A stretch of 63,986 bases of DNA, counting the filler, from Folioceros fuciformis (taxonomy: Eukaryota), in the NCBI GenBank assembly GCA_049999805.1. It is 14 parts of 14 records of this genome, joined end to end, with 100 filler letters (N's around TTAATTAATTAA, not from the genome) between each part and the next. Parts side by side here need not be neighbours in the genome. Positions count along the whole stretch, not along the records: positions 36,468 to 41,617 come from JBNGIO010002148.1; 13 more parts are not named here. One strand, written 5' to 3'. How positions within the stretch are numbered: the first letter of the stretch is position 1; every line of letters begins with the position of its first letter. The translations under genes were made by a program, and so were the position numbers. Shown here piece after piece: positions 24,937 through 59,279 of this stretch. The notes below the pieces were generated by a model. The model saw only the letters and a list, made by a program, of their open reading frames with translations, was not told the DNA's origin and made no database searches.

Positions 24937-26265
24937 ACATTTGCTCCAGTTGTAAAATTTACAACTCTAAGGATGGTGTTAGCATTGGCAGCCCACCTGG
25001 ATTTAGATCTCGAGCAAATGGACGTGAAGACCGCCTTCCTACATGGCAAGCTGGAAGCGGAGATCTACATGCAATAGCCGGAGGGTTATGTGCAACAAGG
25101 AAAGGATCAACTAGTTTGTAGGTTGAACAAGACCTTGTACGGACTCAAACAGAGTCCGAGGGGATGGAACCAACGCATTGATGCATACCTGAAGAAGCTA
25201 GGCTTCAAGCAAGGGACAGCTGATCATGGGCTATACATGCTGAGAGAGGATGACAGGTTTCTCATCTTATTGCTGTACGTGGATGATCTTGTCTTGGCTG
25301 CCACTAAGGGAAGAAGTAGTCTGATGAGCAAAGTGAAAGATCTGTTAAAGCGTGAGTTCGAAATGACCGAACTTGGAGAGCTCACATGGTGCCTGGGCAT
25401 AGAAATTGCAAGGGACCGATCAGCCAGAAAGTTGTCAATTTGCTTGCGAAAATACATAAAAGAGGGCTTGAAAAGATTTAACCTGGCTGAAGCAAATGGG
25501 TGTGCAACTTCGCTTGCAACTGGTCTGAAGCTGACCAGGACTCTAGAACCATTGACACTTGAGGAAGTTGACGAATGGCAAAGACTCCGTATAGACATGC
25601 TGTGGGCACACTTATCTATCTTGCAAATGTAACAAGGCCAGATATTGCATTTGCTGTCAGCTTAGAGTCACAGTTTCTGGAGAACCCAAGTTCTGAGCAC
25701 TGGAGCCAGGTGAAACGCACCTTTAGATACCTGAAGTACACACCTACTCATGGGATAGTATATGCAGGCACAGAGGGAGGGAACCTTACCCTCGAAGGAT
25801 TTTGTGACTCGGATTGGGCTTCGGACCTGAACAACAGGAAATCACTGTCAGCATTCGTATTCATGCTAGCAGGGGGACCCGTCTCATGGTCAAGCAAGAA
25901 ACAGGCCACAATGTCCACCTCAAGCACTGAGGCCGAGTACAAGGCATTGACAGTAGCATCAAAAGAAACAATCTGGGCAAGGAGGAACTTAGCTGACGCT
26001 GGGGTGGCTCAGAAAGATGCAATAGTGGTGTATTGTGATAACCAAGGTGCAATTGCACTCACCAAGAATCCAGTATTCCACTCAAAAAACGAAGCATATA
26101 GAGATCCATCACCACTTTATAAGAGAAGTAGTAGCAGATGGAAAGATTGTTGTGACCTATATTTCTACAGCAGAAAACCCAGCCAACTTGCTCACCAAGG
26201 CCTTGTCTAAAGAGCTGCATACCAAACATGCAAAAAGACTAGGCATGACTGCCTGTGATCACTGA
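24937..26265 (+). mobile_element. Ty1/copia RT-RNase H remnant
   Basis: [58 protein letters not shown]. Confidence 0.96.
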
Positions 26266-33180: not shown

Positions 33181-33347
33181 AAATTGCCCTCTTCAGGTTT
33201 CGTTCTATCTTTGGGGTAGCTAAGGTTTCTATATCTTTTTCAATCACATATATCACTTTGAATGTTGGGCAAGAAAAGCTGGTATGCATCTATGGTAGGT
33301 ATTTCAGGTACAGAGGCCTCACCCGGGTAGAGATAGGTTTAGACTCG

Positions 33348-34313
33348 ATGGCTGCCGCGGGCGGCGGAGGTAAGACTGTGAGGAGTAGAGTGGACGACGA
33401 GCGTATCTCGAAGGCTGTAGATTCTCTGCTGAGATGGCTGGAGTCACAGAAATCGGGAGAGAAGGCGCAGCTGGTTGAGGATGACGAGCTCCTGTATGTT
33501 GTGGTGTCGATGAAAAAAGTACCGCAGGTGGCGCACACCAATCCGCATGCAATTCCACTGCCTCACCCGCTCATTCCCCTGGATGGTTCGAAAGAAATCT
33601 GCCTCTTTGTGAGCGATCGGAAGACGGGTCTGAAGCAGAAGGAAGCCAAGGACAGGGTTGCGCAGGAAGGAATACCTATTCAGAAGGTGGTAGCGCTGTC
33701 CAAGATGAAGAAGGACTACTTCGCGTTCGAGGCCAAGAGGAAGCTGTGTGGCTCGTACGACTTGTTCTTGGCGGATGATAGGATTCTCTCTGAGCTTCCC
33801 AAGTGCCTCGGTAGGACTTTCTTCAAGAAGAAGAAGCATCCTATTCCGGTGCGGTTGTCCAGGGGACAATGGAAAGAGCACATCAGGGCCGCGTGTGGCT
33901 CCGCCTTTTTCTATTTGGCGAGGGGGACGTGCAGTGTCATCAAGGCTGCCAAAGCGTCGCAGTCTAGGGATGAGATCAGGGACAACATACGAGCTGTTGT
34001 GGAAGGGGTAGCTCAGCTTATTCCTAAGAAGTGGTCCAACATCCAGTCCATTTTTTTGAAGACGTTGGGGTCCGTATCCCTTCCTTTGTATCAGGCAGGT
34101 CCGGACTTCCCATTGAAGATACAGGCCGTCAAGAAGTCCGAGTGCGAGGATTTGGATGCCCCGACGGAGGACTCGTCGCAGGAGAGCAAGTTGAAGGAGA
34201 AGAGGAGGGAGGGGAGCCAGTTGAGGGACAGCCAGGCCGCAAAGGACGTTGTGCTTTCGAAGAAAAGAAAGCAAGTTGATAGTTTTCGAGTGTCGAAGAA
34301 GAGTCGAACATGA
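33348..34313 (+). CDS. RSL1D1: Ribosomal protein L1p/L10e-domain protein (RSL1D1/CSIG/Cic1-like), intronless CDS
   Basis: IPLPHPL..EICLFV..KVVALSKMKKDY.AFEAKRKLCGSYDLFLADDRI...LGRTFFKKKKHPIPV...KKWSNIQSIFLKT..SVSLPLY; basic tail. Confidence 0.92.
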   Translation: MAAAGGGGKTVRSRVDDERISKAVDSLLRWLESQKSGEKAQLVEDDELLYVVVSMKKVPQVAHTNPHAIPLPHPLIPLDGSKEICLFVSDRKTGLKQKEAKDRVAQEGIPIQKVVALSKMKKDYFAFEAKRKLCGSYDLFLADDRILSELPKCLGRTFFKKKKHPIPVRLSRGQWKEHIRAACGSAFFYLARGTCSVIKAAKASQSRDEIRDNIRAVVEGVAQLIPKKWSNIQSIFLKTLGSVSLPLYQAGPDFPLKIQAVKKSECEDLDAPTEDSSQESKLKEKRREGSQLRDSQAAKDVVLSKKRKQVDSFRVSKKSRT

Positions 34314-34464: not shown

Positions 34465-36339
34465 TCATTGCTTTTGTCTCGAGACGAGGTCCAGGCTCCA
34501 CAGAGGGACTGAATAGATTAGGATGCAAGGCAGGAGAGAACACGCGATGGATGAAACAAAGTAGGCGTAGGCACGCCAGGGCCTGTCTCCTTGATGCATC
34601 GTGTGCACCTCGACCACAACTGTGGAGACGGTGCTCATGCATCCCATGAGTCCAAGCTGCAGGGCTCCCGTCAAAAGGCTAGCATACCCACTGGCGGCCT
34701 GGAACATGGGCAAAGGCTAGCCGTGAGAATTAGGTACCCTAAACCCTTCAGGGTTGAGGAATAAATGGACATGAGGAGCGACGGTGGGGGTTTCTCGGCG
34801 CCTTACCACAACTTGCGCAGTGCCCAGGCTCGCTTCCAGCCATGACGCGATGACGTTGGCAAGAAGTGTACCAACAGGAAACCATTTAATCCAATGCTCT
34901 GGTCCGACGCCCTGGCCATTCAGCCGGGCAAGTTGCCACCTTGTCCAGACCCCGAAAGGTGCCACAATGCAAGCCATCCAGAGTTGTCTTTGATCCACGT
35001 GCAGCAGGGTGAGAAGCGTAGATGCCACCCACATTCCACCCCCTAGAAGTGAGAAGGATACAAAGAAAATCCATGTACGGGCAGGGTGGTCTTCTGCACT
35101 TCTTTGCAGCTTCCTCACATCCTTCTCAGGTGTCTTCCGTCGCCAACACTGAATGAGGGCTAACAATGCCCTCGAAGAGTCCATGCCGAAAATGAGACAC
35201 ATCCATGATAACTGCATACCTTGGATACACCAACACGAGGTCTCATCAAATTTCGTCGCCGCACAGAAATCAGCACCCCACCATCCCAATTCATGAGCGT
35301 GAAGAGGAATATACCAATGAGAATGCCGACAAAAGCATGGACCCAGCGGCCCCCCGTGAGCAGTTCAAGCATGTGCTGGTTCCAGGATGCAAACGTTGTG
35401 ATGCTGCCCATGAGTCCAGTTGATAGGCCGACAGCCAAGATCTCCGAGTAACTCGAAATATGCGCCTTCAAAGTGACTCCCACCCATCCCATAAAAAAGG
35501 ACCCAACCTGCGAAAGGCTAGAATAGCTGTAAACAACCATCTGAACAGCAACAGGTGAACCGCCGAATCCCGAACATTGCCATTACAGACCATGTTTGCC
35601 GGCAAATCAATGAAAAGCGCACTCTCCTTTCCAGTGACGTCGGCCACTTTGGGGCCAAACAAAGTTTGCAGTCCGAATCTTATGAGCACCTGCACTTGCA
35701 GCCAAAACCACGTGATTACGTGAAAGCATAGCTCAAGCTTGTCGTGCTACTGCTACTGGTTCATGCATCTGGTAAGGAGTACTATGCTACGTTCCACCCT
35801 ACAAAACGACCCTGTTCAGTTAGCAACTAATTTTGTTAACGAAAACCATTACGTTACCCCTAGCATCCCGAACACAGCAAGATGAGCCAGGGTCGATAGG
35901 TACTCAAGAACTGGCGACAACTCGCGTGTATCGGACCTGACAGGAAAGGCCGAGACTATGTCACTGCAAAGGACAGGAATTTGACATGGTCAAAAAAACC
36001 AAGAATGAGGCCAGCAAAAGGCGTCGATGCACACTTGGAGAGCCCTGTCCAAACCGCAGGTCGTGGTTGCAGAGGAGACGCCTTCTCAAGTGGTTGCTCA
36101 TCGTCCAGCTTACTGGACCGGACAGCCTTGTCTCCATCAGCGAACCTGGTTCGTTCAACGGATGGTCCGGCGTCGGATAATCCTCGCGCCAGGCTTGGCA
36201 GTGGAGGTGGCGCAGAGGCCCCGTTGCCTGTGGCTGGCCGTACCCTAGAGACGGGACCAGAAGAGTAACCTCCGTCGCTCCTGGAGTCGAGACGGCCAGA
36301 GTCGCCGGCAGTGGCTTCTAACTGATCCTCGTCGTCCAT
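34465..36339 (-). CDS. FEX: Fluoride export protein (two CrcB/Fluc domains), ~6 exons
   Basis: LAHLAVFGMLG|VLIRFGLQTLFG..DLPANM|VGSFFMGW..GLSTGLMGSITTFASWNQ..APFGVWTRWQLARLNG..WFPVGTLLANV..GLMGCMSTVSTVVVE; GT-AG introns. Confidence 0.93.
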
Positions 36340-36467: not shown

Positions 36468-36708
36468 TGCTCTAAAAGATCTTGACTTCTTACATCCAAC
36501 TTCCCTCAACTCTATGACCGACCAAGTCTAGCATGTAAGTTTGCATTATATATATATATCTGTATATATATGTGAGGTGGCCAGCCCCTATAGGAATATA
36601 CACACACTCTCATAACAATGCACATAGATGCCTTCGCTTGGGTGCTTCCTCCCCATCGTGCACACCAAGGCTACCGACTATCCCTCCACTCTTTGGTGGT
36701 TCACTACA
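36468..36708. mobile_element. LTR terminus (TGTAGTGAACCACCAAAG on the - strand) truncating the DNMT-carrying element
   Basis: Terminus resembles family A (TGTGAACCTCCAAAG); TA-rich tract inside. Confidence 0.55.
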
Positions 36709-39326
36709 CATGAGATCGACGAAAGGAGTAGCACCTAAGGGGAGGTTAACACCACTTCCAGATCCCTCTCCAAGTTCTTCAATCTTTTCATCATACCTCA
36801 CCTGCCTCTTTTGCTTACAAGCACCACCTAACACGTCATCAACTTCCCTCATCCTCTTGATCTCCCCCCAACTTCTAGACTTTCGTCCCTTTTTACTTCA
36901 CCCAAATTACGCTCTTCTATCCTTGTATTCAAAATAACTTTCCACTTCTTCTTCCACTCTTGATAAACTTTTATAGGCATCATAAGCCACTTAATGGTAT
37001 TTAAATCCATAGCTTGCCCAAGCTTTTTGTTCCTCTGCTCAAATGTTATGCCTTCCGCCTCAATGGTATTTGTGTCAAAACCCATCGCTTTCTCTCTATC
37101 CATGAGAGATGGCACATCCCACATATTTCTCTTTGTGTCAAATATCATCCCAGGTCCATCCCCCTTAAATGCATTAGTATTTTCAAAACTAACAAATGTT
37201 GGCAATGCTCTCCTAAGCTCACCCTTTCTATTTATTTTATAAAAAGGTTGTATGTCATCTGAAGTCACCCGCTTACTTACTCGCCCCTCATCTATTTGCA
37301 TGCCTTTGCAACAAATGCCTGGGCATCATGTTATTCCCAAAACACCGGTGCCTATGAGCCTTGGATCCCAATTGCACTGCATCCAACTTTATAGGTTCAC
37401 CTAAATAATACTTGATCTCCTCAAAATCTTGCCTCAACACAACTCTCTTATGCATCTGTGAGTCTACATTTTCAGTCAAAAACCCACATTCTTTCTTTTG
37501 ATGTTTTTGCACCAAATTCAAAATTCTTTTTAGTTCATAAAACAACACCAACCTATAATCTAACAGGCCCTTTCCTTTGCCTGCCATTAAGTGCCCTTGG
37601 CATTCCCAACCAGCTATTATAAGATCAATTTCTTCCTCTATCCGAAATTGTATCCACCCAATAAGCCTAACATTCTACAGCCAAGCAGAAAACACTTGCT
37701 TCACAACTTCAACCTTTAACTGTTCAAGATACTTTTTACATAGCATGAACACTACTCTTGTCTTTGCAATTGTCTGACAAACTTCATCTGGATCACAATA
37801 AATGTAACGTCTAACCACATATCCAGCAGCTAGCACAGCCTCCAAACCAAATGCAATTCCAGCAAACAGCTCAACCAAAACCAATCCATACATAGACGAA
37901 CTCAACGTTACAAGTTTATTACACACAGGTTCAAGTTTACAAACTGCTTCCTTTGTACAAGGTCAAATCTTATCATCTAGTTGAAACTTAGTCTATCGCT
38001 TTTCAAGCTCTCTAAAAATTTCAGTTAATGCTCTATCAACATATTCTCTCATTGAATCCTCTTCCAATCTGACATTAATACATTTTTTAAAACACAACTT
38101 ATCCACGTGACGTAAAACCCACAATCTATGATCTTCATCTTCTTCATCCTGTTCATCCAAAGAGGTTGTTATGTTCACTATGCATGCCTCTTGCCCATCC
38201 TCATGTGACTGCAGTTTAAGTGGAATTGTTGCCACTCTTATTCCCTCACCTTGTTGCCACCCTAGGCGACAATAAAACTTCTCTATCCACAAATCCATTC
38301 CTCCTCCAGGCACAAACAAAGCTTCTGTTCCCAAGATGACATCAAAATTTCCAGATTTAATAATCAAGCACTTTATACAAATTACAAGTCTCCTTCTCTA
38401 TTCCAGGTTTAAAACATAATTGCAATTTCTCCCTAGTCTCCCCATTCACTGCCTCCAAACCTCCATTGGCCATTCTTATCTTCCATCTTGTATCCTGTAT
38501 GTCCCCCTTCCTCAATCCCATGGCATATACTGCATTGAAATGAATCAACGTAGGCTATGCTCTCGAATCTATCAATACCCTTTTTGGTGCAAAACCATCT
38601 ATCAAAAACTCGGATCTACTATTATCCAAAAATGCAATTCCTAGTTTAACTTTTGATTTGTCTTCATTATTTCGACTATTATTGTTTAAACAAAGTGAAA
38701 CCACCTAGCTCAACTTATTAGTCTCATCAGACCACTCCGACATCACGTCTTGCAAAAGTTCTTGAATTTTTGCCTCACCCACTCTCACCTTGATACCCAA
38801 CTCCAACATGCTCCGAATACAACCCATCAAATCACTTTGAAACACTTGTGCTTTCTTACTCCCGTATTGTTCTATCACCTTCACTGCTCTGTCATGTACC
38901 CTCTTACTAAAATCTTTCACATCCACATCCAACACTTCAAATGATTGCGAATACTTCCAATCTGCCACCAACGATCTTCCACGATCCTCATTCTGCCCTC
39001 CAAACCTTGTGTTATGCTTTCTTGTACAACTTCCACCTCCAATGCTTGTTCCATGTTCACCTCACAAACAAACACATCCAACTAAAATTTCCTATAAGCC
39101 TCCTTCTTACTCAAGTCCTTCCTTTTCTCCATTGTTTTAACTTACTTGATCTTGACTCCATTATTCTGGACTGCCTTCAATCAATCAATTTCAGCTTTTA
39201 AATTTGCGACATGTAGCTCCAACAATTTGTGAGACTTATCCATTTCCACGGACCCCCAAACCGACTTCCTCTTGCTCTTTGCACTTGCCTAACATTCTTA
39301 ACATTTTGCCCCCTCAGACCAAACTT
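36709..39326 (-). mobile_element. Retroelement polyprotein remnant: gag-like/coiled region, aspartic protease, C5 DNA methyltransferase
   Basis: KRVLIDSRA (DSGA-like, ~38560-38585), WKIRMANG, FDVILG, followed on the same strand by a complete DNMT. Confidence 0.8.
36849..37926 (-). pseudogene. C5-cytosine DNA methyltransferase domain (one stop, one frameshift)
   Basis: Motif I LVELFAGIAFGLEA; II YCD; IV IDLIIAGWECQG (37597-37608); VI ENV; VIII AHRHRCF; IX/X DREKAMGF...RNKKLGQAMDL. Confidence 0.9.
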
Positions 39327-39646
39327 TATAGGCTTAAGAGATAGGCTTAAGAGATATGAGAAAATCCTAACAGTAGGATTGTATAACATGAGATATGAGA
39401 AAATCCTAACAGTAGGATTGTATAACATGCATCTAACCCATAATACTATCTAACCCATAATACTATGTAAGATATGCTCTTTGCTAATTAGTTAAACAAA
39501 AGATACACAAAGTGTGTTTTAAGGTGGTGTAGGGTGTTCGTTCATGAAGAGGCACACCGACCTACGTAGTGACCTAATCCTCTAGACGATAACTAATCAC
39601 GGGTAGGGACAGGGGAGATTAGCCGTTCCGTAACACTCCCTCTTAA
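39327..39646 (-). mobile_element. 3' LTR with polypurine tract of a different element
   Basis: AAGAGGGAG followed by TGTTACGG at 39635 (- strand); internal tandem duplications. Left boundary approximate. Confidence 0.6.
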
Positions 39647-41717
39647 GCTGAGTGTAACCTGGGGATTATGGAACCCCATATGAAGACATCTGGTTTGCCC
39701 ACCCTGGTGAAAACGCCCATGGCCTCTGTAGCCTACCTCCACTTGCATTCACATGCGCAAAATACGGTTCCCCAAGTATACGTTTGCCTCAAACCCAAGT
39801 TTGCCACAAAGATCAGTGAGCCAGATCCTTTTTAACTGTACACACTTTCAACACGATGTACAGATCAGTGAGCCAGATCCTTTTTAACTGTACACACTTT
39901 CAACACGATGTACAACAAAGACACAGGAATGCAACAGGCTGTCTGCGCCATGGATTCCGGGGCTCCCAAGGCCTCAATTAGCTTCCCCTGCTGGCACAAC
40001 GTTGTCAAGGAGACAGCTGATCCTGCACACCCGCCAGTCTCAGGCTAATCCGGAAACATCGGGCTCGAAGGAGAGGTACCGTAACCCATCCGCATATCCC
40101 AAGAAAGGAGCTGTTCATCCACCCAAGGTAGCTTGCACATGTTGCTTAACCAGAGGACCTCGCCAGACCCCTTACGCCGGAAGTCAGGCGAACGTGAGCT
40201 CCTCTTATCCCGCCTCCTGTCCCGCCACCTTTGGAAGGATCCAGAAAGACTGTCACCACAGCAGCTCCTGCTGCTGGTCCTGGCGATGACCATCGCTAGA
40301 AAATCCTTCCACCGTCACACAGTTTCGGGGGTGGGCTGGTTTCGCTAAAATGCTGCACCCGGATGCTTGGTTGAATTCCAGCGGTTGACGCCCTACAGTG
40401 GGGAGAGCAGGAGCCCCTCTCAGAATCCCAGGGCAATCTGTTTGGAAGACCACGAATCCAGTCGCCGAACTGTCGTCATAGAGGCACCGCCCCTCGGAAG
40501 AAGAAACAAATTGCACACAACACAGCCCCTCGCGAGGTGCCTAAATTCTGAGAGCGCTCATGCCCGTATCACCCTGACCGGCAGCATCGCACACCGTCTT
40601 CTCCCAAACGCCAAACGACAATGGACGCACTGGAAAATTACGATCGGCAAATGAAAAATGCATCAAAGCGGAAAATAAAAAATCAAGAAAGAAGCAGACG
40701 GGAGATCGAAAATCAGGAATGCGAACGGCAAACAAACGGAAAGCGAGAAATTGAGTCGAGCGGAGTGTAATAGTGGAAGATGGACTTGATAAACGCAAAA
40801 GACGACATGAACCGCGCGAATCGTGATAGTTCGTGCCTGTCTACGTTCTAGATCGGGCAGCGAAAGGTGCTCCATTATTTGCACCAGGCTGGAACTCTAG
40901 CTAGCCCATCGCCAGGAACAGTTGCATTCTAGGGTTCACAGACCATAATCGGGTGCAACCACATCGATGTAACGACACCTATAAATTAGGGGACTTTCGC
41001 CCAACGTCGTGCCTCATATCATGGGAGCTGGCCGGACTTCTGAAGCAGAGCGCTTTCGTTCCCTTGACTTCGACAGACCCCTGGGCTGGAGGTCAGGCGA
41101 ACGGGAGCACTCTTCTTTGCCTTGTCTGTCTTATCACCACACCGTCGGCTATCGCGGCAGTGCTTCTGGTGCTACTGTCGTCGGCCATCGTCGGAGAGGT
41201 GCGTTGCCCACCAACATATCTTATCGGAGGTGGAAGGGGAATGGCTGGACTTTCCGCACCTGAGGACTGGCTGCTAGCCAAGGTTTCAGTCTCTTCCTCG
41301 AGGACAGAGGACACTCGTGGTGGACGACCCTGCGCATGCGCAACCAATTGTCAGATCTGCACGGTTCCCGTGGCCATCTGATGTCCATAATTCGCGTTTG
41401 GTAAGACCAGGCGGCTCCCTCGCCTGCCTTGTCTGCATCATAGCTTGAAGTTTGTGATAGAAACCCTAAACCTTCACAGGTGACAGTATGCGTGCCTGCA
41501 TGAGACTTCTGGCCAGCTCCCGCTCCTCACCAGCTTTCAGGAGGGGAGTCTGCGTTAGTTTCATCATCAAGCTCTTCCGTGTGTCTTCAACAAATCCTGT
41601 GCAGCCCTTTGGCCTCTNNNNNNNNNNNNNNNNNNNNNNNNNNNNNNNNNNNNNNNNNNNNTTAATTAATTAANNNNNNNNNNNNNNNNNNNNNNNNNNN
41701 NNNNNNNNNNNNNNNNN

Positions 41718-43396
41718 TGCGAAAGGCAGTTAGGGCTTCGTGCTTATGACGAAGAAAGTAGAGGTGTGTGTAATGGCTGAAATCATCCAGGAGCAAGAAG
41801 AGATATGAATGGCCACTTAGGGAGACAGTTTGCATCGGACCACTGAGATCGGCATGGATAAGTTCGAGAACCTTGGAGGTGCGACTGGAAGAGTGAGGAT
41901 AAGGGTGAACCTTATGTTTTCCAAGAACGCAACCCCTACAAAGTGGTAGATCTCTAATGAACTTAGGAAGGCCAAGAACCATGTCCTCCTTAGACATTCT
42001 TTTGATGCCGTGAAGGTGATGATGGGTTAACCATAAATGCCAGAGCTTTGATGATGGGTTAACCATAAATGCCAGAGCTTTGATTCTAATTCCACAGGCA
42101 AGTAGGTAGCGCTAAAACTAAGAACGGGAGCCATTGGCTAGGAAATTTGCCACGAGCTACCAGAAACAATCTGCTACAGGGAGGGCACGTGAAAGTCACA
42201 ACGTCACCCTCTCGTGAAAAGGTATGTATGGTACAACCTTGTTGAGTGAAAGGAATCCTACTTTGATCATGTGAGAGGCACTTGAATACAGAAAGCAAAT
42301 TGATTACCAAGCCACGGACATGAAGAATGTCCCTGATCATAACCACTTGATTAGTAGGAAGTTGAACTTGGACAACACCCTTGCCGGTGGCATGCAGAGT
42401 GACAACACTTCCAACTTGAACAGGGAAAGGTGCTGATAATTCGTCAAGAGTGAGAAACCACTCACGATGAGAGGTCATGTGCTCCATAGCGCTAGAATCC
42501 ATGAGCCATTCATCATTGGCTTGGAAGAAAGGAAAAGTACTGGCCATGAAGACAAAAGCAGACTTAGTAGCATGAGCAGAGGGGTTAGATGTGGAACTCG
42601 AAGAAGGTATGTCAACACCATTAGCCCTATCCCTTTTACGCTTCCTACAATCAGGGGCTATATGTCCTCGTTTGACACAATAATGGTAGACTTTGTCTTT
42701 ATGTGCAAGATAAGGAGGAGAAAACCGAGGTGTTTAATCAGCGCCAAAACGAGGCTTCCAAGGTTTCCTACCACTAGTAAAGAACCGCAGAGCCCTGTGG
42801 AGGAGGAGACATAGAGAGGGAAGACTACTTCATCATGGCTTCATGCATGATAAGAGCAATAAGGGAGGTCAGGGATAGAGCCTTAGAAGTACTCGTTGGA
42901 GTAGAAATAAAGGGACCCCAAGAAGGGGGGAGAGCCCTAAGGAGATGCATGACTTGAGTCTCTTCATCTAATTTGAGACATGTAGAAATTGCAGCATTTA
43001 AAATCCTTGCCATGATTCGAGGAATTCTAAGACAGGTTGATTTTCACCTGGCTTGCAGGCTAAAACGAGATCTTGAGCATGTAACCGGGAAGCTACACTC
43101 GACTCTTGGTAAGTAATTGTAAGTTTGTCCCCCTTCTCTTTAGAAGTAGGTAATCGTTTGATGATGGGGATCAAGCGATCACCTACATGTAATAAAATAT
43201 CTGACCTAGCTTGTGCATCTTTGGCTAACTAGTCAGGTAAATCGGCATGCCCTTTGGCAGGTTGGGGAATATTGCCATCTACAATGCCCCATACAGAATT
43301 CCTAAGAAGGAGCATCTCGATCCTAGCAGACCAGGTATGGTAATTTATACTAGTCAATTTATCTATTTGATATGCATGAGTGGTAGATTGCACCAT
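41718..43396 (-). mobile_element. Ty1/copia gag-protease-integrase N-terminus, degenerate
   Basis: IDKLTSINYHTWSARIEMLL; YHYCVKRGHIAPDC (zinc knuckle); WLMDSSAMEHM; LWHLWLTH; CRGCVLGK; LELIHADLSGPM. Confidence 0.95.
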
Positions 43397-44257: not shown

Positions 44258-45142
44258 CAAAATGGTAATTCTCCTCTTATTGATGTATATCATGCTGTAA
44301 CTATGTTGGGAAAAGCTTGGCGTATCGATGTTAAAGGGAAAATCATTAGAAATCGTTGGAAACATTCTGGGTTATGGTGAGAGAGAGCAAGTGCTAGCGT
44401 GTCGGATATAGACTTGAATTAACTTAGTTTTGAGACATGGAATGCTAACAGTGATGATAAGCAACTGGAAGACAACCAAGCAACATGTGAAGATTTGTTC
44501 AATAGAGATTACGCAGAAATAGAAATGCTTCTTTGTCAGCTGAGGGATTTGGGACTTGAAACAAGAGGATTGACTTCTACTATGTCTGCACAAGAATTTG
44601 TTGATTATGAAGTGACAAATGCATGTGCTATCTTTTTTACTCTGGATGCAAATGATACATGGGCTTCCGTTCAACCTCCACCCGAAAATGAAGTTGTCAA
44701 TATTGAAAGTTCTTCTGAAGAATATTATCAAGAAAGGCCTATTTTAGGTCGTGCTCAAGTGGAAGATGCACTTGGGGTGATACGCATGTTTCTGGAGCAA
44801 CAACCAAATGACACGATGTCTACAATTAGGAATTTGCAACAAATTGAGAAAGAAGTTTTAAAGCAAGTTAGGTCCTCTTTGAAACAAGTACAAATAACCC
44901 GTTTTTTTAACCCATTTTGAAGTTCATTTCTTATTTCATTTATTATACTTTTATAATATTATTAAGTATAAAATATGAGTCGGTGATTGTCTTTAAAAGA
45001 TATGTATAAGAAACAGCAATATATAATATATAATATATTTTAAATATTTTTTATAAATACTTAAATTCTCTAATTGTTACACCTCCTTAAATGTTACCCA
45101 ATGCCCTACTCCCAACAGGTAACATTTAGGGAGGGTGGACTG
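44258..45142 (+). mobile_element. pogo/Tigger-like (Tc1/mariner superfamily) transposon 3' end with TIR
   Basis: IDVYHAVTMLGKAWRIDV..IIRNRWKHSGL and the KQVQITRFF C-terminus. Ends GGTAACATTTAGGGAGGGTGGACTG|TA, with subterminal TAAATGTTACC inverted copies. Confidence 0.8.
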
Positions 45143-45169
45143 TATTGTGGTTGTTATGAATATTACTAG

Positions 45170-45455
45170 GGAGTCAATTTGTGATCACGTTGTCGTCAAC
45201 TTCCTTAGATGGGAGGTGGAGGGTTAGGCAATTCCCATAGTCCATAAGTATTCTTCCATATAAGACGAGCATGTTTTCATCCCCCTTATTCTTAAGACCC
45301 ACGAGGCTATAGGCAACGCCTTTTCAAGTTTCATCAAAGAGTGTGCAAAGGTGTATTATAGTCATAGGAATGAGGTTCTTCCTCATTCCTTAGAAGTGGT
45401 CTTCTTTCGACAATGCATATCCATTGCTTTATAAAGAGAATTGACCAATGCAATC
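45170..45455 (+). mobile_element. Non-LTR retrotransposon REL-endonuclease C-terminal fragment (CRE/R2/NeSL-like)
   Basis: From 45243: HKYSSI*DEHVFIPLILKTHEAIGNAFSSFIKECAK...FFRQCISIAL*RELTNAI. Confidence 0.6.
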
Positions 45456-46799
45456 TTTGGAACAACAACAAGTACAAATCAAGCAACTTCTTTTGCACCA
45501 ATGGTAGACATCTTGCTATTCCACATCATGACATTTTGGGAGTAGTAGGTAGTTTTAAGAATAATGTTGGAAGGGGCTACCACTTCATTTAGCCTTTAGC
45601 CCTATTCGGGTTGTTCCTCCTCAATTTTGGAGTAGTTGGGATTTTCCATGTCATTTTCAATATTAGAAAATAACAATGGATATTTGTCTTTGTATCCTTC
45701 ATACTCTTATGTATTTGAAGCTTTATGTTGAAATTGCTCAATTGCTAGGATGATTATATTTTTAGCACTATGACTCCTTTATATTAAAAGCACTAATACT
45801 TTGTCTTGATTTAAATTGAAGACGCGTTGCAACATGAATTGGGACATTCGAGTACTTAAATTTACTCCCATCTCATGAAGAAGAAAGCTAAAATAATGCT
45901 ATGTTACGTTATATTCTATAAATATTTATCTTTGTACTCATCAAACTTCTATGTATTTAATGAATTGTTATCTGCTCATGATTGGTGTTGTAAAGAGTGG
46001 TAGTCCATCGGTAGACTCAAATGCTTTGCCAAAAATGCCTGAGGAAATGACTTCGACAAGTATTTTATAAGACTTGTGGCTATTAAGGCTATCAAGTTTA
46101 GGGTTCCCTCCATGAGTTGTTTGTCCTTCTGCAGCAGGGTTGGAATCTGCGTGGTCGATTCGAACCCCAGATGCACCTACGATTCCATAATTCGGGATAC
46201 GACGAAGATTGCCGCCGCGTGCAAACCCGTCCTTGAGCACTGCGTTACGAAGCGGGCATGGAATCCAGTCTTGTCGACAATCAAGCATGGCAAAAGTGTG
46301 CGGAGTTGTATCGTGTACCAGGGGCATCAGAGACGTCAGGTAATAAATCTCGTCGCCACTCACAGATGGAGGAAGGCATATACATAGAAGCCGGAAGCCC
46401 TTGAATGCGAAGGCGTGGAGGCAGCATTACATTCAAGGAGACACTGCCTGTCGGAGTGTCAGACACAAGGGCCAGAGAGCAATGTAAAGAGCAGTGCCTG
46501 AAGCCGAGCAACATTCCAATAGATGATAGTCGCCGGATAGATTACACAGCTGCCCGAAGAGAGTCTTTGGTACAGCTTGCCTTAGGAATAGCAAGAAAGC
46601 TTCCTCTACAAAGTTAGGGATGCAGCCTGCCGGTGGTTCCATTGCTACCACCATTACTACCGACTATCAAAATAGTTTTTTACAATTCGGAAAAAAAAAT
46701 CAGCGAGCGCTCCTTCTGCAACGACAAATCTGCGATGGCTCGCAGACGGCCCCACAAGAATGGCAACCCAAAACCTCAATGAAATAAGCCAAGTCACAA

Positions 46800-49700
46800 T
46801 TAATCATCAACGTCGGTATCGTCTGCCCGGACTTTTCTCTTTCTTCCTCGCTTCTTCGGCTGGACTGGCCCAACCTCGTAGCTTGTGGCTGAATCAAGCG
46901 CACATAAGCGCAATGCAACGGAAGTGATGTTTGATACCTTCACGGCTGCTGATAGTGAATACCAGTGCCTCCAGGATGATCGAAGGTAGTCGGTCTTTAT
47001 CATCAGTTCCAGAACAAAAAGGGCCTGTGTCACCTGGACCAACAACAACAACTGTCAGATACACTTGCGGCCAGCCTGGGACAAATTCTGTACTCAATTC
47101 AAGAAAGCACCAGGGCATTACCTCAAACAAGCACTTCGCTGCCTTCACCAATGCCCGCCATGCCCTCCGTCTGCTCTCCTCACCCTTCCCAGCTTCCAGC
47201 ATGCCAGGAGTCAACACAGCTTCCACATCAAGGATACTCATCTTCAGCCATTTCAGCAGCACAGCTCGCGAACCATCCAACGGCTTCATTGAGCTTTCTG
47301 GTATACTTAACTTCTTCCCAGGTTCCTGAGCCACTCCGGCAGTTTTGGCTACCAAAGGCCCTCCTGCTTTGGAAGGCATACCTTGCTGACCTGCCTCCGC
47401 CATAGAGTCCTTCACACCAGTTGCCGCTGTCAGGATAGCTGTAGTAGATCCATAAACTATCTCAGACTTTTCATTCCTAGACTGTACAGGGATTGAGCTA
47501 ACATCTTGTACATGAACAGGCTGCCTTTCAGATATCTGGGAACCGTTGACAGTTCCCAGGTCAGCTTGCAACTTCGGTCCACCTTCACAGATGTCACCCA
47601 ATTTGTTTTCCTGCGCCTCAAAGGAAGTCCCGTCACCAGTGATCTTGGGGGGCAGCGCACAAGATGAATTAACACCAGCTCCTGTAAAATCTGCTCCCGG
47701 ACTGCATTGGGCCTCAGATTCAGGTTCCATTACCGGCTTGCTAATCGACTCCTCCAACAAAGAACTTGAGACTGGTATATATACATCACATTCATTTTTG
47801 ACAGCATCCTTCTCTCCAGCATTGAGATCCTCACACCTGCTTTGATGCACAGAAACCGGTTCACAAAACCCAGCCTGGGTCCCTGGTGGCATATCACTTG
47901 CTTGATTCCTTTGTGTGGAAACATCTGTTGTGCCCACCATAGCAGCAGGGTAGTTCATAGGCTGGTTCAGTGTCAACAGGCCTGATACCAGTCCATCATG
48001 GGTAGCAATACTTCCAAAATTATCTACAGTCCACCCTGTATGAGGATTAGCCTCCAGTGCAAAGATATCAACCCCCCCATCTCCTGCTTCTGTGAAGCAA
48101 ATCATATCTTCAGGGCCGCCATTGGGCAGAAAACATGAATGGTCAGCTCGACTATCAGGTTTTGTACTCTCGAAACAGGTTCCCATACCTGAATTCGGAG
48201 GCTGCACACGTCCAAGTTCAGGGTCATCGGCACATGGGGGAAGTCCAGAACAGGCATCTCCCATTCTTGAGTCGGACATCAAACAAAGGGATGGATCAAA
48301 AGCAGGAGAGCACGGAAGGGCAGGAACAAAAAGAGGCCCCTCATTTGCAATGAATCCTATCTGGAGAACCCGATCTCGTGTAGAATCAGGGGTACCAAAT
48401 GGAATAAATGTTCCTCCACCATGGAGGCCCCATTTTGCAGTCGGCGCGCCTCCAAAAGAGGTTGCTACACCCAATGAATCCTTTTGACTGCCGGTCAATA
48501 GTACATCCTCAGGCTGTATGTTTTCAGACAGCTGCTTGATCTCTTGAATAATTTTTTCCCGAGAAGGCAACCTTGGAGTTTCTGATGTGCTTTGTGGCTG
48601 CTCACCAGATGCAGACAATCCTTTCCTCTTACCTAGCCTCTTGGTGCTACCTGATTTGTTTGACACAACCATATACCCGAAGCCCAAAGCCTGACCCTGC
48701 ACACCATCATGGATGCCTGATTCATCCTCAACACATCCAATCTCTAAAATACCTCCATCACTACTTTCCCGCGTATCACGAACAGCTGTAGCCCCTGCAT
48801 CCACAATCGGTAAGGCAGAAGAATCCCAATCTCCATAGATCTGCTGTCGACTTTGCACTTGTTCTGTTTGAGCATTGCCAGATGCAGAGATTGCTGGTTG
48901 CTTCTTCCTCACAGTCAGTTTCTTAGACCGATGCAACTCATGTGCCCGATTCAAGAAGGTTGAGCTGTGAATATGGCTCACATCCTTTCGTTTCCGCCCA
49001 ACTGACTCTGTAACCTTGTAGCCACCTGGCACTGGTAAGGTAGTGACAACCTTCTTGGATGCCTTCCGATTCCTCACATGCTGGCCACGACATTTGTGTG
49101 TAAACAGCTCAGTTTCGTTAGCATATGATTCATGGCAAAGCTTGCAATGTGGTCTGCCTGCCCATACAGGTTCCAGGCAAGCACATCGGAACATTGTATC
49201 AGCCTTTCTCAGGTTGGCCTTCTTCGTGTCAGACTTCCTCATGTTGCCTTTACTGCTCTTGCTATCAGAAGGCACCTCGCATGACCGAAAGGGACCAAAT
49301 ATCCTCTCAAGGATTCGCGTAGCCCTTAGGACTGGAAAACCCTTGGTAAACACTTTATCTCCTTCCTCCTGGAAAAGCATAACGCGAGAGGATGGCAGCC
49401 CTCGGTCCTGCTTCCTGTGTTCCTGCAAATCACTTCCTAATAGTCCTGCAGCCAATGACTTCTTCCACAATGAAAGATTTGCTCTCAGGGCCTTTTCTTG
49501 CTTGCTGTATCGAAGGCTGCTAATCAGTGCATCCAACTGAGACTCTGTTTCATACAGTGTCCACTGGGAACGCTCACATTTTTCATTATTGATCCCAGTG
49601 CATTCATAATCCACAGGTGGCGCCGCATCCAACTTACTGGTGTCTGCTGTACCAGCACAACGTACCACCAAACGTTCTTCCACAGCCACTTGAGGTCTCA

Positions 49701-52700
49701 TTCTTGGCCCACATATGACCCAGTAGGCGCGTCCTGAATTGTCTTGCCCAAGATAGTCTCTTCTCAAGCTCGTATTCATAATCTGCAGCTCGAGCTTCTC
49801 GATTTCTACAGTCAAAGCATCTGTACACGCTTTCTCAGCGGTATCTACAGACCCTTCCCCATCGCTTTGTTGCCTACTTCTTAGCCCAGCCACGTTAAGA
49901 GACTCTGCATGGACTGCATCTTCCTGCATCTCCGTGTGACTGTCAGGTGTGGGAATTGCAGACGGTACAACCATTTGCTTAACTGTACAACCTGCATCAG
50001 CTGGCGATTCCACTTGCAAACGTGCTTCATTCAAGGGCAACTCTGCCGGCAAGAGGCCCTTCCCCTCGTTTGAATGCAGTGTGTCTACATAACTGATTTG
50101 ACCATCCCTACACACACCAAGGATCGATTGATCTTCTGGAGGATTCCAATTAACTGCTTGCCTAGCATCCTGAATACTGCCAGTTTTATCCAAAGGTGCT
50201 TCAACTTCGATCTCAGGAATCTGATCAAGCTGAGAACTCTGTTCTAGCTTTGCACCTGACACACAGCTATTGATATCCAAGGCACCTTCTTCCCTGATCG
50301 GACTCTGCACAACCCTTTTGGGAGGTCTTCCACGTTTCCGTGCAGGCACGATTTCACCCATTTCTGTCTGTAGTTTGCGTTTCGGTGGTCTACCCCGTCT
50401 TTTTTCCAAACTTGGGTGCATATCCCGTTCTACAGCCCTGGAAAGTCCATCCTTCGGAGGTCGACCTCGTCGTTTTGCACCAACGGAGATAGTCACCTGC
50501 AGACTTTCAAATGATTTTACCTTCGGCGGCCGTCCTCGTTTGCGTTTTTGTGTCACCACAGGTGACTGCACATTTTCCAATTCATTCTCTGCAGCAGCCC
50601 TCCCTGTCGGGATTCTGCTTCGAATATCCTCTCCAGTATTTTGAAGAACCCCTCTCTCGAGACAGTCTGCACGAGTTTGTACCCTGGAACCACTGCTGAC
50701 AACAGTCCCCGCTATGGATTCCATCTCTTTCTTAATCTGCAGAACCTTTCTTGGTTGTGACCTTTCAGCAACCAGTGATTGTAATTTTTGTTGCAGCTCC
50801 ACAGACAGATCTAGGGACTTCTCCAAATTTGCCCTTACAGGTGTCGTTTGAAGGGCCTCATCACAGAGGGTTTTCAGCAAAAGCACCATCTGCAGACGAA
50901 ATTCAAACGAGAAAATATCCTCAATACTCCGAATTAAATAAGTAAAGCACTGCAGGTAAACGATAGGGGGGACATACTTCTGCAGTGCTTAACTGCCAGT
51001 ACTCTCTTTCTTCCATCCTTTCTGCTAAAGCATGGAGTGGGCTCCTTTCGATTGAAGCCCTCTCAACATAACCTCCGCTGTCTTGACCCTCACTGATGCC
51101 GCCCTCTGCCTCAGGTCTCTCAGGGAAACTGTTTTCCAGCGCCAAACACTGTGGGCAAAACCACTTTCCTTCTGGAACTTTGGCCAAGGGAGGACTCAGG
51201 CAGTATGTGTGATACTCTGCCTCACATCCATCACACAACAGTACATTGTCATAGTCAGCATCAACTCCACAAACTCTACATGATTCATCATCCCATGGCG
51301 CTTTCGCAAGTTCACCCCCTTCTGCCTTTTCAGCTAACACCTTATTGCTGTTAACATCAGGTACCGATATGGGAGCTCCAGACTTCTCAAGGGAATCCCC
51401 TAATATTTTGCCAATGTCCACAAGTTCATATTGGGCTGCGCTGGTAGCATCATCCGCCATATCCTTGCGCTTTTTCTGTGAAGCTCCTCCATGCAACAAA
51501 CTCAGAACCTGCACAAACAGAGGGCCTAGGTGACTTATTGGTTTGGGATGAAAGATGGTAGACAATGAATAACGCAACAAGTGGCAGCAAAGAGCTGCAC
51601 TGAACATCCACCACCATCACGCAGATATTCTGACGTTGAATACCTGCTTAGCATACAAATCCTCAAAGAGCTCAGACAGCTTTTGAGAGAGTCGCAACAT
51701 TTTGCTGCCATCTTTGTACACTGCTTCTGCATTCTTCCAAATCTGATGAGCAGAACAAAACATTACGCTAGAGTGACTGAAGGAGACTAAAAAGGTTAGG
51801 TGGTGCAACAACTTGAGAAAAGGCACCAGAAGGAAAAGGAAAACTGATGGCAACCATCACTACCTGTCGAACATCAGCTGCAAATCCTTCAGGGGACTGC
51901 AAATAAACTCCAGCCTCCAACCTCAAATCTATAGTCCTCAAATCCAGGGGCCTTACAACCCCAGAAACTGCCTTCAGTGACCCATCTCCGTCAGTGGCAT
52001 CAAACAGCCCATTCCCATAAAGGAAGCAGAAAACTCGGGAAGTATCAGCAGCTGCAACTTCACGAAGAACAAGGCGACAGCGCTGTGCGATCAATGCTGG
52101 CGAGGGAGCAGTAGTCCGAACCCGAACCCTGCACTTCCTTGGCTTCACTTCTTCCCCACGGAGCGTCGCTAAAACTGTGAGGACAGCATGCTGCATCAGG
52201 TCGAACAAGGACAACTAAGTGAAGACTACGTAAGCACAAATCAAAGTTCGTCCATCATAGGCCACCACCAAGACCAATTACACAGAAAAGATAAAACACT
52301 GAAACATAGAAGGTACTCACCTTTGTTGGTCCTGCCGCATTGCCTTTAAAAACTTCTTTGCTAATAGACCATTCCAGCATCGTCCTTGCCCATTCTGGAG
52401 GCCCTAGCTTGAGGGCCTCCTGGACTCTGTTTCTGATCCTTGCCCCCGTATTTGTGGGGATGTGTGCAATGGGATCAAGAACCTCAATCCAGCGTTCCTG
52501 CTCCTCACCCATCTGCTGTTCACCAACGGCTTCAACCTTGTTCTCTCTTCCACTGGCTTCGAGAGCCTTACTGCTCGCGGTAGGATCAGCTGGGTTTCCT
52601 CCACTGGGAAAACCTTTCCACAACGCCCTCTCTACATTGCCCAGAAGCTGAACACATTCATGACAATCAGACAATTGACTTGCAGACAAAAAGGACAGTG

Positions 52701-55700
52701 CTACTTCATGGCCGTCCAAGGGTGAAACAGACAAACCTGTGCATCTGCTTCAGCACCTGCCATGCCATCTAATCCCCCATACAAAACTCCACCATCCCCT
52801 TGAATAAGCCGATAAATTCTTGAATACTGCAAATTCCGCCTCTCCAGATCATCATCCTCCTTTTTCAGAGCAATGAGAGCAAGGATGTACCGATAGGCAA
52901 CATCCGGCCAGGTGATCACATTCAACGGTAGGCAAAACTCTCTCTCAGGCTCAGCCAAAGGCTCATCCTCAGGAGATTTTTTGTTGCCTGGTTTGGGCTT
53001 GAGTTCCTCAAAATCCAAACTCTGAATTCCAAGAATCTTCTGCTTCATATCGAATATGAGGAGCCTGATCAACGGAATGTGAATGTTGGCTAGGACTGTC
53101 ATACCACGACTTGCTATCTGTTGCAGGCCTTTGGTTGGTCCAACCAGGCTTTGTTTCTCACCTGTCAAGTTTCCTGGATCACACGAGACTGCAGTGTCGT
53201 TTAGCCCAACAGACTGTGAGGAGGCAGGATTGGCTTGCTCGGCAGTGATTTCTGTGGCTTCCCAATGGTCAACGAGCGCATCTTGAAAGTCCTTGAAAGC
53301 AGGCAGTTGCATCCCAACAACGTCACAAAATCTACAGAGGAACTCCCATATCTGTAAATAGGACATCAAACAACAACAGGTGATCAACAATTCGCCTGTG
53401 TAACTGACACCTTTCCTACCGATCCACATCAGTAGTGATAGACGTACTAGTGCCTTCAGAAAAACGCTGTAAAGGAGAATGCCACAGCTTTGATAACAAA
53501 ATGTTCAAGGTCACAAGCATAAGTATCCACCTGAAGGACATCGCTGCTAAGATGAGACGGAAGGTTTGCCCCAAATTGGAGGCCTGCCGGCTGATTGTTC
53601 TTGTGTTGCAGAGGACTATCTACAGCTGCTGTAACGTCCTGAGTCTCTTGATAGTCTTCAATTGATACCAACTTCTCAGGAGGCTCGGAAAGATTTTCCT
53701 CTTGGATCTCTTGATTGTCTTCAACTGATACCAGCTTCTCACGAGGCTCGGAAAGCTTCTCCTCCTGAATCTCTTGATTGTCTAACTCTGATACCAACGC
53801 CTCAGTAGGCTCGGAAAGCTTCTCCTCGGCAAGGCACGCCCCTTCTTCTGGAGGTTTTTGTGGAGAACGAGAACCCTCTACCATCCCCTCCATAGAGCCC
53901 ACCTCCTCTGAAGGTGGAGCCGGGGGTTGATCAGCTACCTGAAAATCATCTTGCTGTTCAGAATCGTTTTCCCCTAAATTCTTGCATACCTCTGCACCTG
54001 GAAGCAACAACTGCAGCTGACTTCGTGAACTCCCCTTCTCCAGAACCTGTGCCAGTCTTTCCAACAATGTGGAACAGTTCATTTCGAAGTCCAGATCCAC
54101 CACCACATTACTGGGACACAGGATTGCCTCGTCTTCATTCGAGGTATCCCGGCCAAGAAGAAGAGCCAGTGAGCTCATCGATAGTGGCTGCTTACCGCGT
54201 GCAACATCTGAATGTGAGATCACCCATTGAATAAATCGTTCTGCGAACCTTTTCCACGCTTCCGATGGAGAGTTAGCTTCAACAGCAAACTCGCCCATTT
54301 CACTGTTGAGGTCCAACTGCACATCTACCTGAGTCACAGTGTGCCCTTGCCCAATGGGACATCTACCAAGATCATCCTGCCTGCCTGCAGTACAGAGAGA
54401 TCAGATGTAAAACATGGAAAACACTGCCGAGCATTGGCCATCTTGCAGATAGTTCAACCCCCTATTGCCCCCTGACGAGACAACACAATGAAAACGGGGG
54501 CTGCTCAAGAGAGAAACTCACCTACCAACGTCGAGCAGGATCGTCTCGTCATTCTGAAAACAGAACCAGCATCGTCCACGTCTAAAATTTCACTGATGCA
54601 AAGGGATCCTGTGCTGGTATCATGCCAGGTGGACCAATGCAGCACAGGAGAAGTAGCAGATCCGTTATCACCCGCCTCTGCTGTTTCAAGCTTCTCGAAA
54701 CATGATTCGATACAAGGCTTCCCACATGAAACGGGCTGCTCCAATTTGGACTGTAACCCGAGAGACAGAGACCGTCAGACACCTTCTATAATGGACTAAA
54801 TCTGTAAAACTGAACGAAAGGGAAAACCCACCCACCTTATCAACACTGCCTTGGCTTCTGTTCTTACTCGTGTGCAGGCCAAGAAACCTAGCAACCTCAA
54901 CTCGAGAGCGAAATTTATGGTTGTCAGGCGACACAAAAGTCTTATCAACCGTATTACTACCAGCCCGCTTCTTGAGCTCCACATCCCAGCCATTTCCCAA
55001 GGTGCCATTCTTCTCAGCAATAAAACTCCTCAGCTGCTCCATGATGGCGACCTTGTCGAATGACTCAGTGGCAACCGACAGCCTCCTAGCCTTTGACTGC
55101 GCAGCCGAATCCAAAAGCCCAAGATGCCGGGCCACTTCTGCACATGATCTGAACAATTTCTGGTCTGGCGAGAAGTATTTGACGGTAGCCATTCCACTCC
55201 TATGGCGACTCGTCACATCAGCTCTCCAGCCATCTTCTAGCACACCATTTCTTTCAGCCACGTAATTCCGCAGTTCCAGAATAGCCTCAGCCTCCCTGTC
55301 ACTATTTACTTGACGCCCATCATGTTCCAAACCTTCCTTCAAAATCGAGTCAAAGAACTCGCCTGAACAAATGTCGGCCTGAAACGCATTGTCATCCGCT
55401 AGATCAACATGTATTGAGTTCAAGTCGTCGTTGAGGAGCCCAATCCCATTATCGAAACTCTCGATCATTTCACTGTCCCTGTTTAAAGTCAAACGCATCA
55501 CGTCCGCGTAGTCCAACTCCCCCCGGTATGGCACAAGTTCCTGACCCTCCACCCGTGACGGCACCTCAGCCTTACTGGCTCTCGCTCGAGTCCTAGGAGT
55601 GGGTGTGCAAACACTCTGCGCCTCTAAACCGTCGAAGTACCTGGCGACCTCTAGCTTCGAGTGGAAGCGCCTTCTCTCCGGCTGGGGCGAGAAGTAAAAA

Positions 55701-58945: not shown

Positions 58946-59246
58946 TACCGGGGTTGAAGGATCGCAAGAGGAGCCACATGGTGAAGGAGGAGAGGAGGAA
59001 GCAAGAAGGAGAGGAGAAAGAGAGGTCTCACACTCTCACAATGTCTCAATAGCAAGGGAACTCCAGGGGGTATTTATACCATCTAGAATAACTCCCAAGG
59101 AAGCTTCACAAGAAGCTGCGCAAGAAGCTTCCTACATATTAGCTTAAGCTAATCTAAATAAATGATACTTAACTAGACACTATTCTTAGACTAAACACAT
59201 TAGTCTAAGCACATTGGGCTTTAATAAGCCTACAACCTCCCACTTA
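58946..59246 (-). mobile_element. Copia 3' LTR (family C, truncated) with polypurine tract
   Basis: AAGTGGGAGGT|TGTAGGC at 59234; TATAAATACCCC at ~59067-59078. Confidence 0.8.
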
Positions 59247-59279
59247 AAGGCCAATTTACCTTCATAGGAGAGTGGTCTA

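Follow-up and report, generated by a model that had tools for sequence, protein, structure and literature searches.

Introduction

The closest described counterpart of the element treated here is KnitGypsy-Dnmt3 of the alga Klebsormidium nitens (de Mendoza et al. 2018, PMC5890265). In the text of that paper an intronless, non-rearranged DNMT3-type DNA methyltransferase (DNMT) domain forms part of a Ty3/gypsy polyprotein, and the element is multi-copy and under purifying selection, with copies that are methylated by the host and an A-coding-B-A-B arrangement of terminal repeats. The same text describes SymbioDIRS-Dnmt3 of Symbiodinium, whose domain carries out de novo CG methylation in yeast. 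The subject of the present analysis is a protease-DNMT sequence in a window of 63,986 nucleotides (nt) from Folioceros fuciformis (GenBank assembly GCA_049999805.1), the window being the whole stretch of DNA analysed, in which 100-nt spacers separate 14 short contigs. The sequence lies on the minus strand of one contig of 5150 nt (36468-41617), and it is likely to be a dead, doubly truncated Ty3/gypsy copy of the KnitGypsy-Dnmt3 kind, resident in a hornwort genome.

No report of a DNMT-bearing land-plant retrotransposon was found in the literature searched; subscription papers, the figures and supplement of PMC5890265 and bioRxiv supplements may contain such members. The accessible text of PMC12344493, PMC11244446, PMC10952607, PMC12513842, PMC6453930 and bioRxiv 10.1101/2021.11.30.470311 contains no land-plant member, and later papers, in their accessible parts, cite the family for ‘streptophytes’ and name no land plant.

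A dead protease-methyltransferase copy

The protease and the DNMT were located with hidden Markov model (HMM) profiles built from related elements. The parts of the copy (36733-39330) and its borders, in the direction of the element and with independent E-values (iE) for profile matches, are as follows.

39331-39660, minus strand: segment resembling a long terminal repeat (LTR) in sequence; a polypurine tract lies at about 39636-39645, and there are short tandem duplications
38663-39330, minus strand: probable decayed 3' part of gag, or gag-protease spacer, from its position and continuous repeat cover
38381-38662, minus strand: N-terminal half of a retropepsin-type aspartic protease (iE 4.3e-11; 37% identity over 62 amino acids to the intact relative L015, E 5e-09)
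38218-38418, minus strand: C-terminal half of the protease, with FDVILG, in the next frame after a frameshift (iE 3.9e-10)
37945-38217, minus strand: protease-DNMT linker in the DNMT frame, with two stops (37995-37993 and 37965-37963), co-linear with open reading frame (ORF) 1 of L015
37291-37944, minus strand: DNMT3-like C5 methyltransferase, motifs I-VIII (iE 5e-69; Pfam PF00145)
36978-37292, minus strand: C-terminal part of the DNMT, in the next frame after a frameshift (iE 2.6e-28)
36733-36977, minus strand: post-DNMT linker of 245 nt, ending before the position at which reverse transcriptase (RT) starts in relatives
36468-36732, no strand assigned: inner piece of a higher-copy repeat that abuts the truncation and runs to the contig end, from depth and loose ends

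The DNMT is intronless, co-linear with the protease and non-permuted, its motifs following one another in linear order from I to X: motif I at 37872, motif II at 37806, the catalytic Cys of motif IV at 37626, the ENV of motif VI at 37479 and the RxR of motif VIII at 37362, then the target-recognition region at 37205, motif IX at 37097 and motif X at 37025. The Pfam DNA_methylase model passes its cut-off (E 2.7e-07), and the DNMT and protease are co-linear with those of L015 (E 8e-42 and 5e-09). All of the protease and DNMT motifs quoted in an initial annotation of this DNA are present on this strand in the order that it gave. Its description of the DNMT as complete holds in that every motif can be traced, but the sequence is a pseudogene with stops, two frameshifts and a degenerate motif III.

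The copy is dead and cannot encode an enzyme. Motif III carries a stop at 37677-37675, and in the protease active site, LIDSRA, the expected Gly is read as Arg (DSR) with a stop directly after it. There are three stops in the 369-codon frame 38397-37291 and four in the 241-codon frame 39100-38378, whilst one frameshift falls within the protease and the other after DNMT motif VIII. The open frame of an active DNMT is accordingly absent, one stop and one frameshift lying in the domain itself and the others upstream. Upstream of the protease, at 38700-39326, HMM profiles detected neither gag nor a zinc knuckle, and the LTR-like segment at about 39331-39660 would bound the copy on its 5' side.

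A multi-copy family with a second copy in the window

The element is a multi-copy repeat family in its host. In sequencing run X1, 730 contigs matched the 5150-nt contig, 604 of them less than 95% alike, and the summed depth across the element was 33-240 against 6-7 on the unique flank, a value that is not a copy number; over 38663-39330 it was 33-123 in the same run. The window itself holds a further copy, found with tblastn.

3564-4335, minus strand: second, deeply diverged protease-DNMT copy (DNMT iE 1.2e-27, protease iE 0.002)

This second copy retains the C-terminal half of the protease (4335-4154) and DNMT motifs I-III (3893-3564), interrupted by a Copia RT/LTR fragment. The two copies have no blastn match to each other and their synonymous sites are saturated (proportions of synonymous and non-synonymous differences, pS and pN, of 0.80 and 0.45). 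The possibility, raised by the initial annotation, that the DNMT is a single-copy host gene is contradicted by the hundreds of diverged contigs and the second copy in the window. A weak DNMT match also occurs at 6910-6671 (iE 0.083). A supposed third copy at 57371-57844, a gag-profile match, was rejected as Copia gag.

At 11 DNMT codons most siblings differ from the copy; the siblings carry the family-typical residue at seven, three are synonymous, one is a tie and none favours the copy. The decay accordingly belongs to the copy itself.

Relatives and their domain order

A phmmer search returned 527 proteins at E<=0.001, and layouts were scored in the best 150. The DNMT follows the protease or precedes RT in 34, lies between RNase H and integrase in 60 and stands alone in 56; for three of the 34 the RT assignment is doubtful, but the protease-DNMT arrangement is retained. 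The two retroelement layouts separate in both the DNMT tree and the RT tree, with support of 0.97 each, so that the DNMT either changed position or passed between gypsy lineages. The DNMT of the window falls with the protease-DNMT layout, outside the RNaseH-DNMT-integrase clade. The latter lineage (60 of the 150; P0008, P0032, P0033, P0036, P0288 and others) has the same DNMT family and a C-terminal PHD.

Taxa were looked up by name for 27 DNMT relatives, which included six from Closterium and one from Mesostigma; no K. nitens sequence was identified among 30 proteins looked up in this way. In Closterium, the gene models P0035 and P0285 fuse protease-DNMT with Copia SH3 and RVT_2 domains, probably through nested insertions, and these fusions may bear on the ‘LTR Copia’ wording used for DNMT3 elements in the accessible text of PMC12344493. 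Word-index protein searches with alignment were insensitive, giving two and one matches. Viral contigs yielded five weak DNMT-only loci without retroelement domains.

Longer relatives came from metagenomes, where the best 80 of 374 loci (L001-L080) were analysed. Their order is gag-protease-DNMT-RT-RNaseH-integrase: RT, RNase H and integrase follow the DNMT in 62 of the 63 informative loci, that is, those with room, and a PHD-like motif lies past the integrase in 23 of 25. One relative locus, L020, has an internal deletion of RT, and another, L071, has no RT after the DNMT.

Among 12 loci with room on both sides, eight show the A-coding-B-A-B layout, in which a polypurine tract precedes the first B. 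The outer ends are TG...CA, and of eight distinct insertions four have an exact 4-bp target duplication, three match at three of the four positions and one has none; the ends and duplications therefore point to integration of a split LTR by a DDE integrase. Examples are L005:6111-15425, L044:5730-15399, L054:6102-14972 and L076:4961-15400, and the inner junction of the split LTR, CA followed by a few bases and TG, resembles a two-LTR circle junction. A similar split-LTR layout is reportedly found in REM1. The initial annotation had expected full-length copies to carry RT, integrase and LTRs. The relatives do possess RT, RNase H, integrase and terminal repeats, although these are split repeats and not ordinary LTR pairs. 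No nucleotide match was found between the window copies and 85 relative loci, and because of this the ends of the window copies and of the relatives are not comparable.

In four loci a single stop separates DNMT from RT, an in-frame TAG with CARYYA directly behind it.

L008:2080-2088, in-frame: TAG-CARYYA site
L015:5083-5091, in-frame: TAG-CARYYA site
L050:4509-4517, in-frame: TAG-CARYYA site
L055:4661-4669, in-frame: TAG-CARYYA site

Near matches occur in L016 and in L025/L030/L032/L056. Across all loci CARYYA follows 67 of 44,013 stop triplets. CARYYA is the readthrough signal of tobacco mosaic virus, as described in the text of PMC4132726. These loci form one clade in the DNMT and RT trees, and two proteins that end shortly past the DNMT group with them in the DNMT tree. 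To judge from the sequences, TAG-CARYYA in this clade is probably a site of readthrough that lies behind the DNMT and not, as might be usual, behind gag. The 64-locus subfamily that dominates the set has a single open frame. The motif lies 255-366 nt past the DNMT in the relatives that have it, a position beyond the break in the window copy, and the surviving window linker contains no stop-CARYYA motif.

The break ahead of reverse transcriptase

In the initial annotation the absence of RT was ascribed to an LTR insertion truncating the copy at 36708. RT is indeed absent and the break precedes its expected position, but the break lies at 36732/36733, against the inner part of a repeat, and nothing indicates an LTR end at 36708. 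The copy ends 245 nt past the DNMT, whilst RT in relatives starts at a median of 353 nt past it (334-1174, n=63); RT is missing because the break comes before that place. A resemblance by eye to an RT start at 36733-36980 was discarded, since 219 of 1000 shuffles scored equally well.

Two sequencing runs, X1 and X2, are probably from the source sample and hence not independent. Identical contigs in both bridge the truncation junction, so that scaffolding did not create it. In nine contigs of X1 and nine of X2 the abutting repeat is matched up to 36732 and then gives way to other sequence, so that what the window contains is an internal part of that repeat. The summed depth in the bin 36640-36811 reaches 660 in X1 and 1020 in X2.

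The abutting repeat at 36468-36732 may be either an LTR of unrelated origin or the 3' repeat of the element itself. The second option underlies a rival explanation, namely that the copy is a non-autonomous derivative in which an internal deletion fused gag-protease-DNMT to the 3' terminal repeat of the same element, with mobilisation in trans by a helper. The break just ahead of RT suits this, as does the existence of L020 and L071 among the relatives, and siblings of the abutting repeat run past 36732 into a tract that is purine-rich on the element strand, possibly a polypurine tract with a non-TG repeat as in relatives. Set against this are the depth of the abutting repeat, several times that of the DNMT, and its lack of any blastn match to the ends of relatives, nearly all of which keep RT, RNase H and integrase. 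Other repeats, moreover, interrupt the two window copies, each at a different point, as in nested debris. A non-autonomous derivative is consequently judged improbable, and truncation of an ordinary copy is preferred.

Host and methylation state

The host was placed with an intronless gene on a neighbouring contig.

33183-34313, plus strand: RSL1D1/UTP30 gene, intronless

Its top match is Nothoceros aenigmaticus (69%), and in the RSL1D1 tree it is sister to the hornwort Nothoceros (99/99) within embryophytes (98/99). On the sequence of this single gene the host is most likely a hornwort.

The methylation state of the copy was read from run X3, taken as a base-converted library. In five X3 contigs 78 differences match 83 minus-strand CHH cytosines and 32 CG/CHG cytosines are apparently unconverted, whilst 13 of the 14 changes found only in X3 are CHH. 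The copy therefore looks to be methylated at CG and CHG without CHH, as the host enzymes MET1 and CMT would leave it. The observed/expected CpG ratio is 0.26 in the DNMT against 0.80 in the host gene.

Run X4 comes from another sample and another study under the same species label, its RNA nature being only a guess. It is identical to the element's contig over four stretches between 39465 and 41617. Its depth is 42 on 40756-41617, a segment that is single-copy in the DNA runs, and it has no cover over 36984-39047, which is no evidence on expression. The segment 39465-41617 is possibly transcribed; two ORFs tested there have no Pfam family.

These data bear on whether the contig comes from a co-sequenced streptophyte alga or other organism, so that the family would not be in a land plant at all. 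Such contamination could be entertained given that the window is a chain of short contigs with spacers, that every named relative is algal (Closterium, Mesostigma) and that the element's contig and the host-gene contig have no repeat in common. It is nevertheless very improbable, as the identity with X4 recurs over four stretches of the same contig and two copies occur within 64 kb, on contigs of like GC content and CpG depletion. The methylation pattern points the same way: CG/CHG methylation without CHH is reported for the hornwort Anthoceros agrestis in the text of PMC10952607, unlike the relatively high CHH methylation of K. nitens given in that of PMC5890265. The proposal of the initial annotation, a Ty3/gypsy lineage with a DNMT right after the protease and Klebsormidium-type kin in a land plant, is supported by the layout of the relatives, the multi-copy nature of the element and the hornwort gene.

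The methyltransferase: type and selection

The family profile matches DNMT3A/B/C best (E 5e-23 to 8e-20), ahead of HhaI (2e-11) and DRM (6e-11 to 4e-07). The window frame alone gives only weak matches in the PDB, the best being HhaI at E 0.0055, and is too decayed for ranking; the assignment for this reason rests on the family profile and the model of a relative. The modelled L015 DNMT (predicted local distance difference test, pLDDT, 97.3) finds only DNMT3A/B/C chains among the matches listed, with a best E of 1e-19 and template modelling (TM) scores of 0.70/0.82. A single-sequence fold was not usable (pLDDT 33). In a cluster look-up of the L015 DNMT, a lead only, the first cluster was mostly Streptophyta and the next two, of near-equal score, were phage methylases. 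The window DNMT is accordingly predicted to be of DNMT3 type.

Conservation of the catalytic Cys, ENV and RxR among the aligned relatives is 94-100%, and the window copy matches these residues. In six between-lineage pairs the DNMT dN/dS (ratio of non-synonymous to synonymous rates) is 0.11-0.19, a sequence-level sign of purifying selection on the DNMT in relatives, and it is 0.27-0.41 among four pairs of decayed siblings.

Host DNMT3 genes do exist in non-flowering streptophytes, according to the text of PMC6453930, and the sequence could in principle be a host DNMT3 gene, pseudogene or retrocopy that came to lie beside a protease by chance. This is scarcely credible. There is no DUF3444, nor any Pfam family, on 36849-37325 or 36978-37292, and the sequence lacks introns, is multi-copy and recurs next to a protease within the window; its frame and spacing from the protease are those of dozens of elements. 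The retroelement origin of the DNMT is preferred.

Proposed mechanism

Live members would make a gag-protease-DNMT-RT-RNaseH-integrase-PHD polyprotein, the order observed in relatives, from which the protease may free the DNMT inside the particle. The DNMT would then methylate new double-stranded cDNA, probably at CG, before integration, a step that by analogy with SymbioDIRS-Dnmt3 is held to be slightly the better bet. The DDE integrase would insert the cDNA with the 4-bp target duplication seen in relatives, and methylation beforehand could let the insert join the methylated-transposon state of the host or escape recognition as foreign DNA. The initial annotation likewise proposed that the lineage can methylate its own cDNA, which the dead window copy could not do. 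In one clade the leaky stop would place the DNMT at Gag level, with RT and integrase as a minor readthrough product. The window copy was presumably silenced and then decayed, its CG and CHG methylation fitting host MET1 and CMT.

The same element may alternatively use its DNMT without methylating cDNA, through DNA or RNA binding or through methylation of the target site or the RNA genome. The inactivity of the K. nitens domain in yeast and the non-canonical WEC motif IV of most members are in keeping with this, and a structural role that calls for stoichiometric amounts would agree with Gag-level expression in one clade. Yet the near-complete conservation of catalytic residues, the purifying selection and the DNMT3 fold count against it, and the related SymbioDIRS domains methylate CG de novo in the experiments described in PMC5890265. 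A role other than cDNA methylation is therefore considered rather unlikely, if still worth serious attention, and the pre-methylation of cDNA is retained.

A number of observations weigh against the overall interpretation. Profiles for RT, RNase H and gypsy integrase match neither the copy nor its contig, and these domains are known from relatives, none having been seen for the hornwort family. The window DNMT sits on a long, poorly placed branch and its nearest relatives are about 41% identical. Kinship with KnitGypsy-Dnmt3 is judged from shared described features, and the authors of PMC5890265 report no methylation by the K. nitens gypsy DNMT in yeast, a result that their text calls inconclusive. 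Motif IV of the window copy is without its usual Pro and reads GWECQ; of 134 relatives scored, 78 share this form and 36 have GWPCQ. The metagenome set is uneven: one subfamily accounts for 64 of the 80 loci, and several loci represent one and the same insertion recovered from different assemblies. For that subfamily the dN/dS of 0.27-0.28 is near the value of its RT, as expected of decaying copies. The 11 codons used to attribute decay to the copy were drawn from the 40 best-supported of 1068 differences, and the hornwort placement depends on one gene, sited on the contig adjoining that of the element.

Wider significance

Land plants silence retrotransposons by cytosine methylation, and a family that retained its own de novo methyltransferase in land plants tests whether elements benefit at all from arriving pre-methylated. 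The family is in print from one alga; with a hornwort host and kin in Closterium and Mesostigma, how old it is and how it was inherited can be tested. Hornworts, being nearly without CHH methylation, offer a clean background for the footprint of a transposon enzyme, and intact relatives such as L015 are natural sequences for enzyme and readthrough assays. Tentatively, and with somewhat less than even confidence, a broader picture may be drawn of a streptophyte-wide lineage, and no peculiarity of Klebsormidium, that would predate the Mesostigma split and have been carried onto land; a single hornwort would harbour two or more sublineages that separated long ago. The lineage would combine split LTRs with a DDE integrase, one clade packing many Gag-level DNMTs by way of a leaky TAG-CARYYA to pre-methylate its cDNA, and may contribute de novo methylation to bryophyte genomes from a source not hitherto recognised.

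Other features of the window

Facing the RSL1D1 gene is a weak CrcB/fluoride-exporter-like match at 34717-35364 (minus strand), which at E 5e-05 is under the cut-off. An MBD9-like host gene occupies 44258-56194 on the minus strand, with MBD, DDT, PHD, bromodomain-like, WSD and AT-hook features and a 1364-codon open stretch at 46894-50988. Decayed Ty1/copia fragments (RVT_2, SH3, Pol_BBD, gag, integrase) are numerous, at 223-3560, 10771-12515, 25078-26210, 42086-42733 and 57000-60429, and a piece of LTR is common to 89-183, 3188-3282 and 9603-9697.

Comparison with known systems

The element very probably belongs to the KnitGypsy-Dnmt3 kind, as its sequence suggests. Of the features described for that element two are found in the window, the DNMT3-type domain and the multi-copy state, and three only in relatives. 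It differs in its hornwort host, in that the window copy is dead and without RT, RNase H, integrase or ends, and in the apparent absence of CHH methylation.

Comparable polyproteins occur in Closterium and Mesostigma (for example GJP34393.1, CAI5973665.1 and EP00899 P003960); they combine zf-CCHC, protease and DNMT, with RT in the longer ones, and they share both the WEC/WPC form of motif IV and an insertion that separates motif II from motif III. The Closterium proteins are 33-36% identical to the window read-through frame. These polyproteins differ in their algal hosts and are annotated as hypothetical or unnamed.

SymbioDIRS-Dnmt3, in which a DNMT3-type domain likewise lies in Pol and the direct repeats are likewise split, is the best functional analogue on the text of PMC5890265. 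It is, however, a DIRS element with a tyrosine recombinase, whereas a DDE integrase, TG...CA ends and 4-bp target duplications characterise the relatives studied here. The EpiLTRs of Euglena and Cymbomonas are also gypsy-type elements with a cytosine DNMT (accessible text of bioRxiv 10.64898/2026.05.21.726589), but theirs is sister to DNMT4 and accompanied by DAM and a chromodomain, and the preprint itself separates EpiLTRs from streptophyte Gypsy-DNMT3. Pfam found neither DAM nor chromodomain in the window frames or in intact L015, which ends in PHD.

Among host enzymes, the plant DNMT3 described in the text of Yaari et al. (2019, PMC6453930) is of the same catalytic type and is distinguished by a C-terminal DUF3444, the lack of a preceding protease and not being multi-copy. 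DRM has permuted motifs, in contrast to the linear I-X order here, and is neither protease-linked nor multi-copy. The gypsy-DNMT3 kind of element was already known from a green alga; what is new is the land-plant host, most likely a hornwort.

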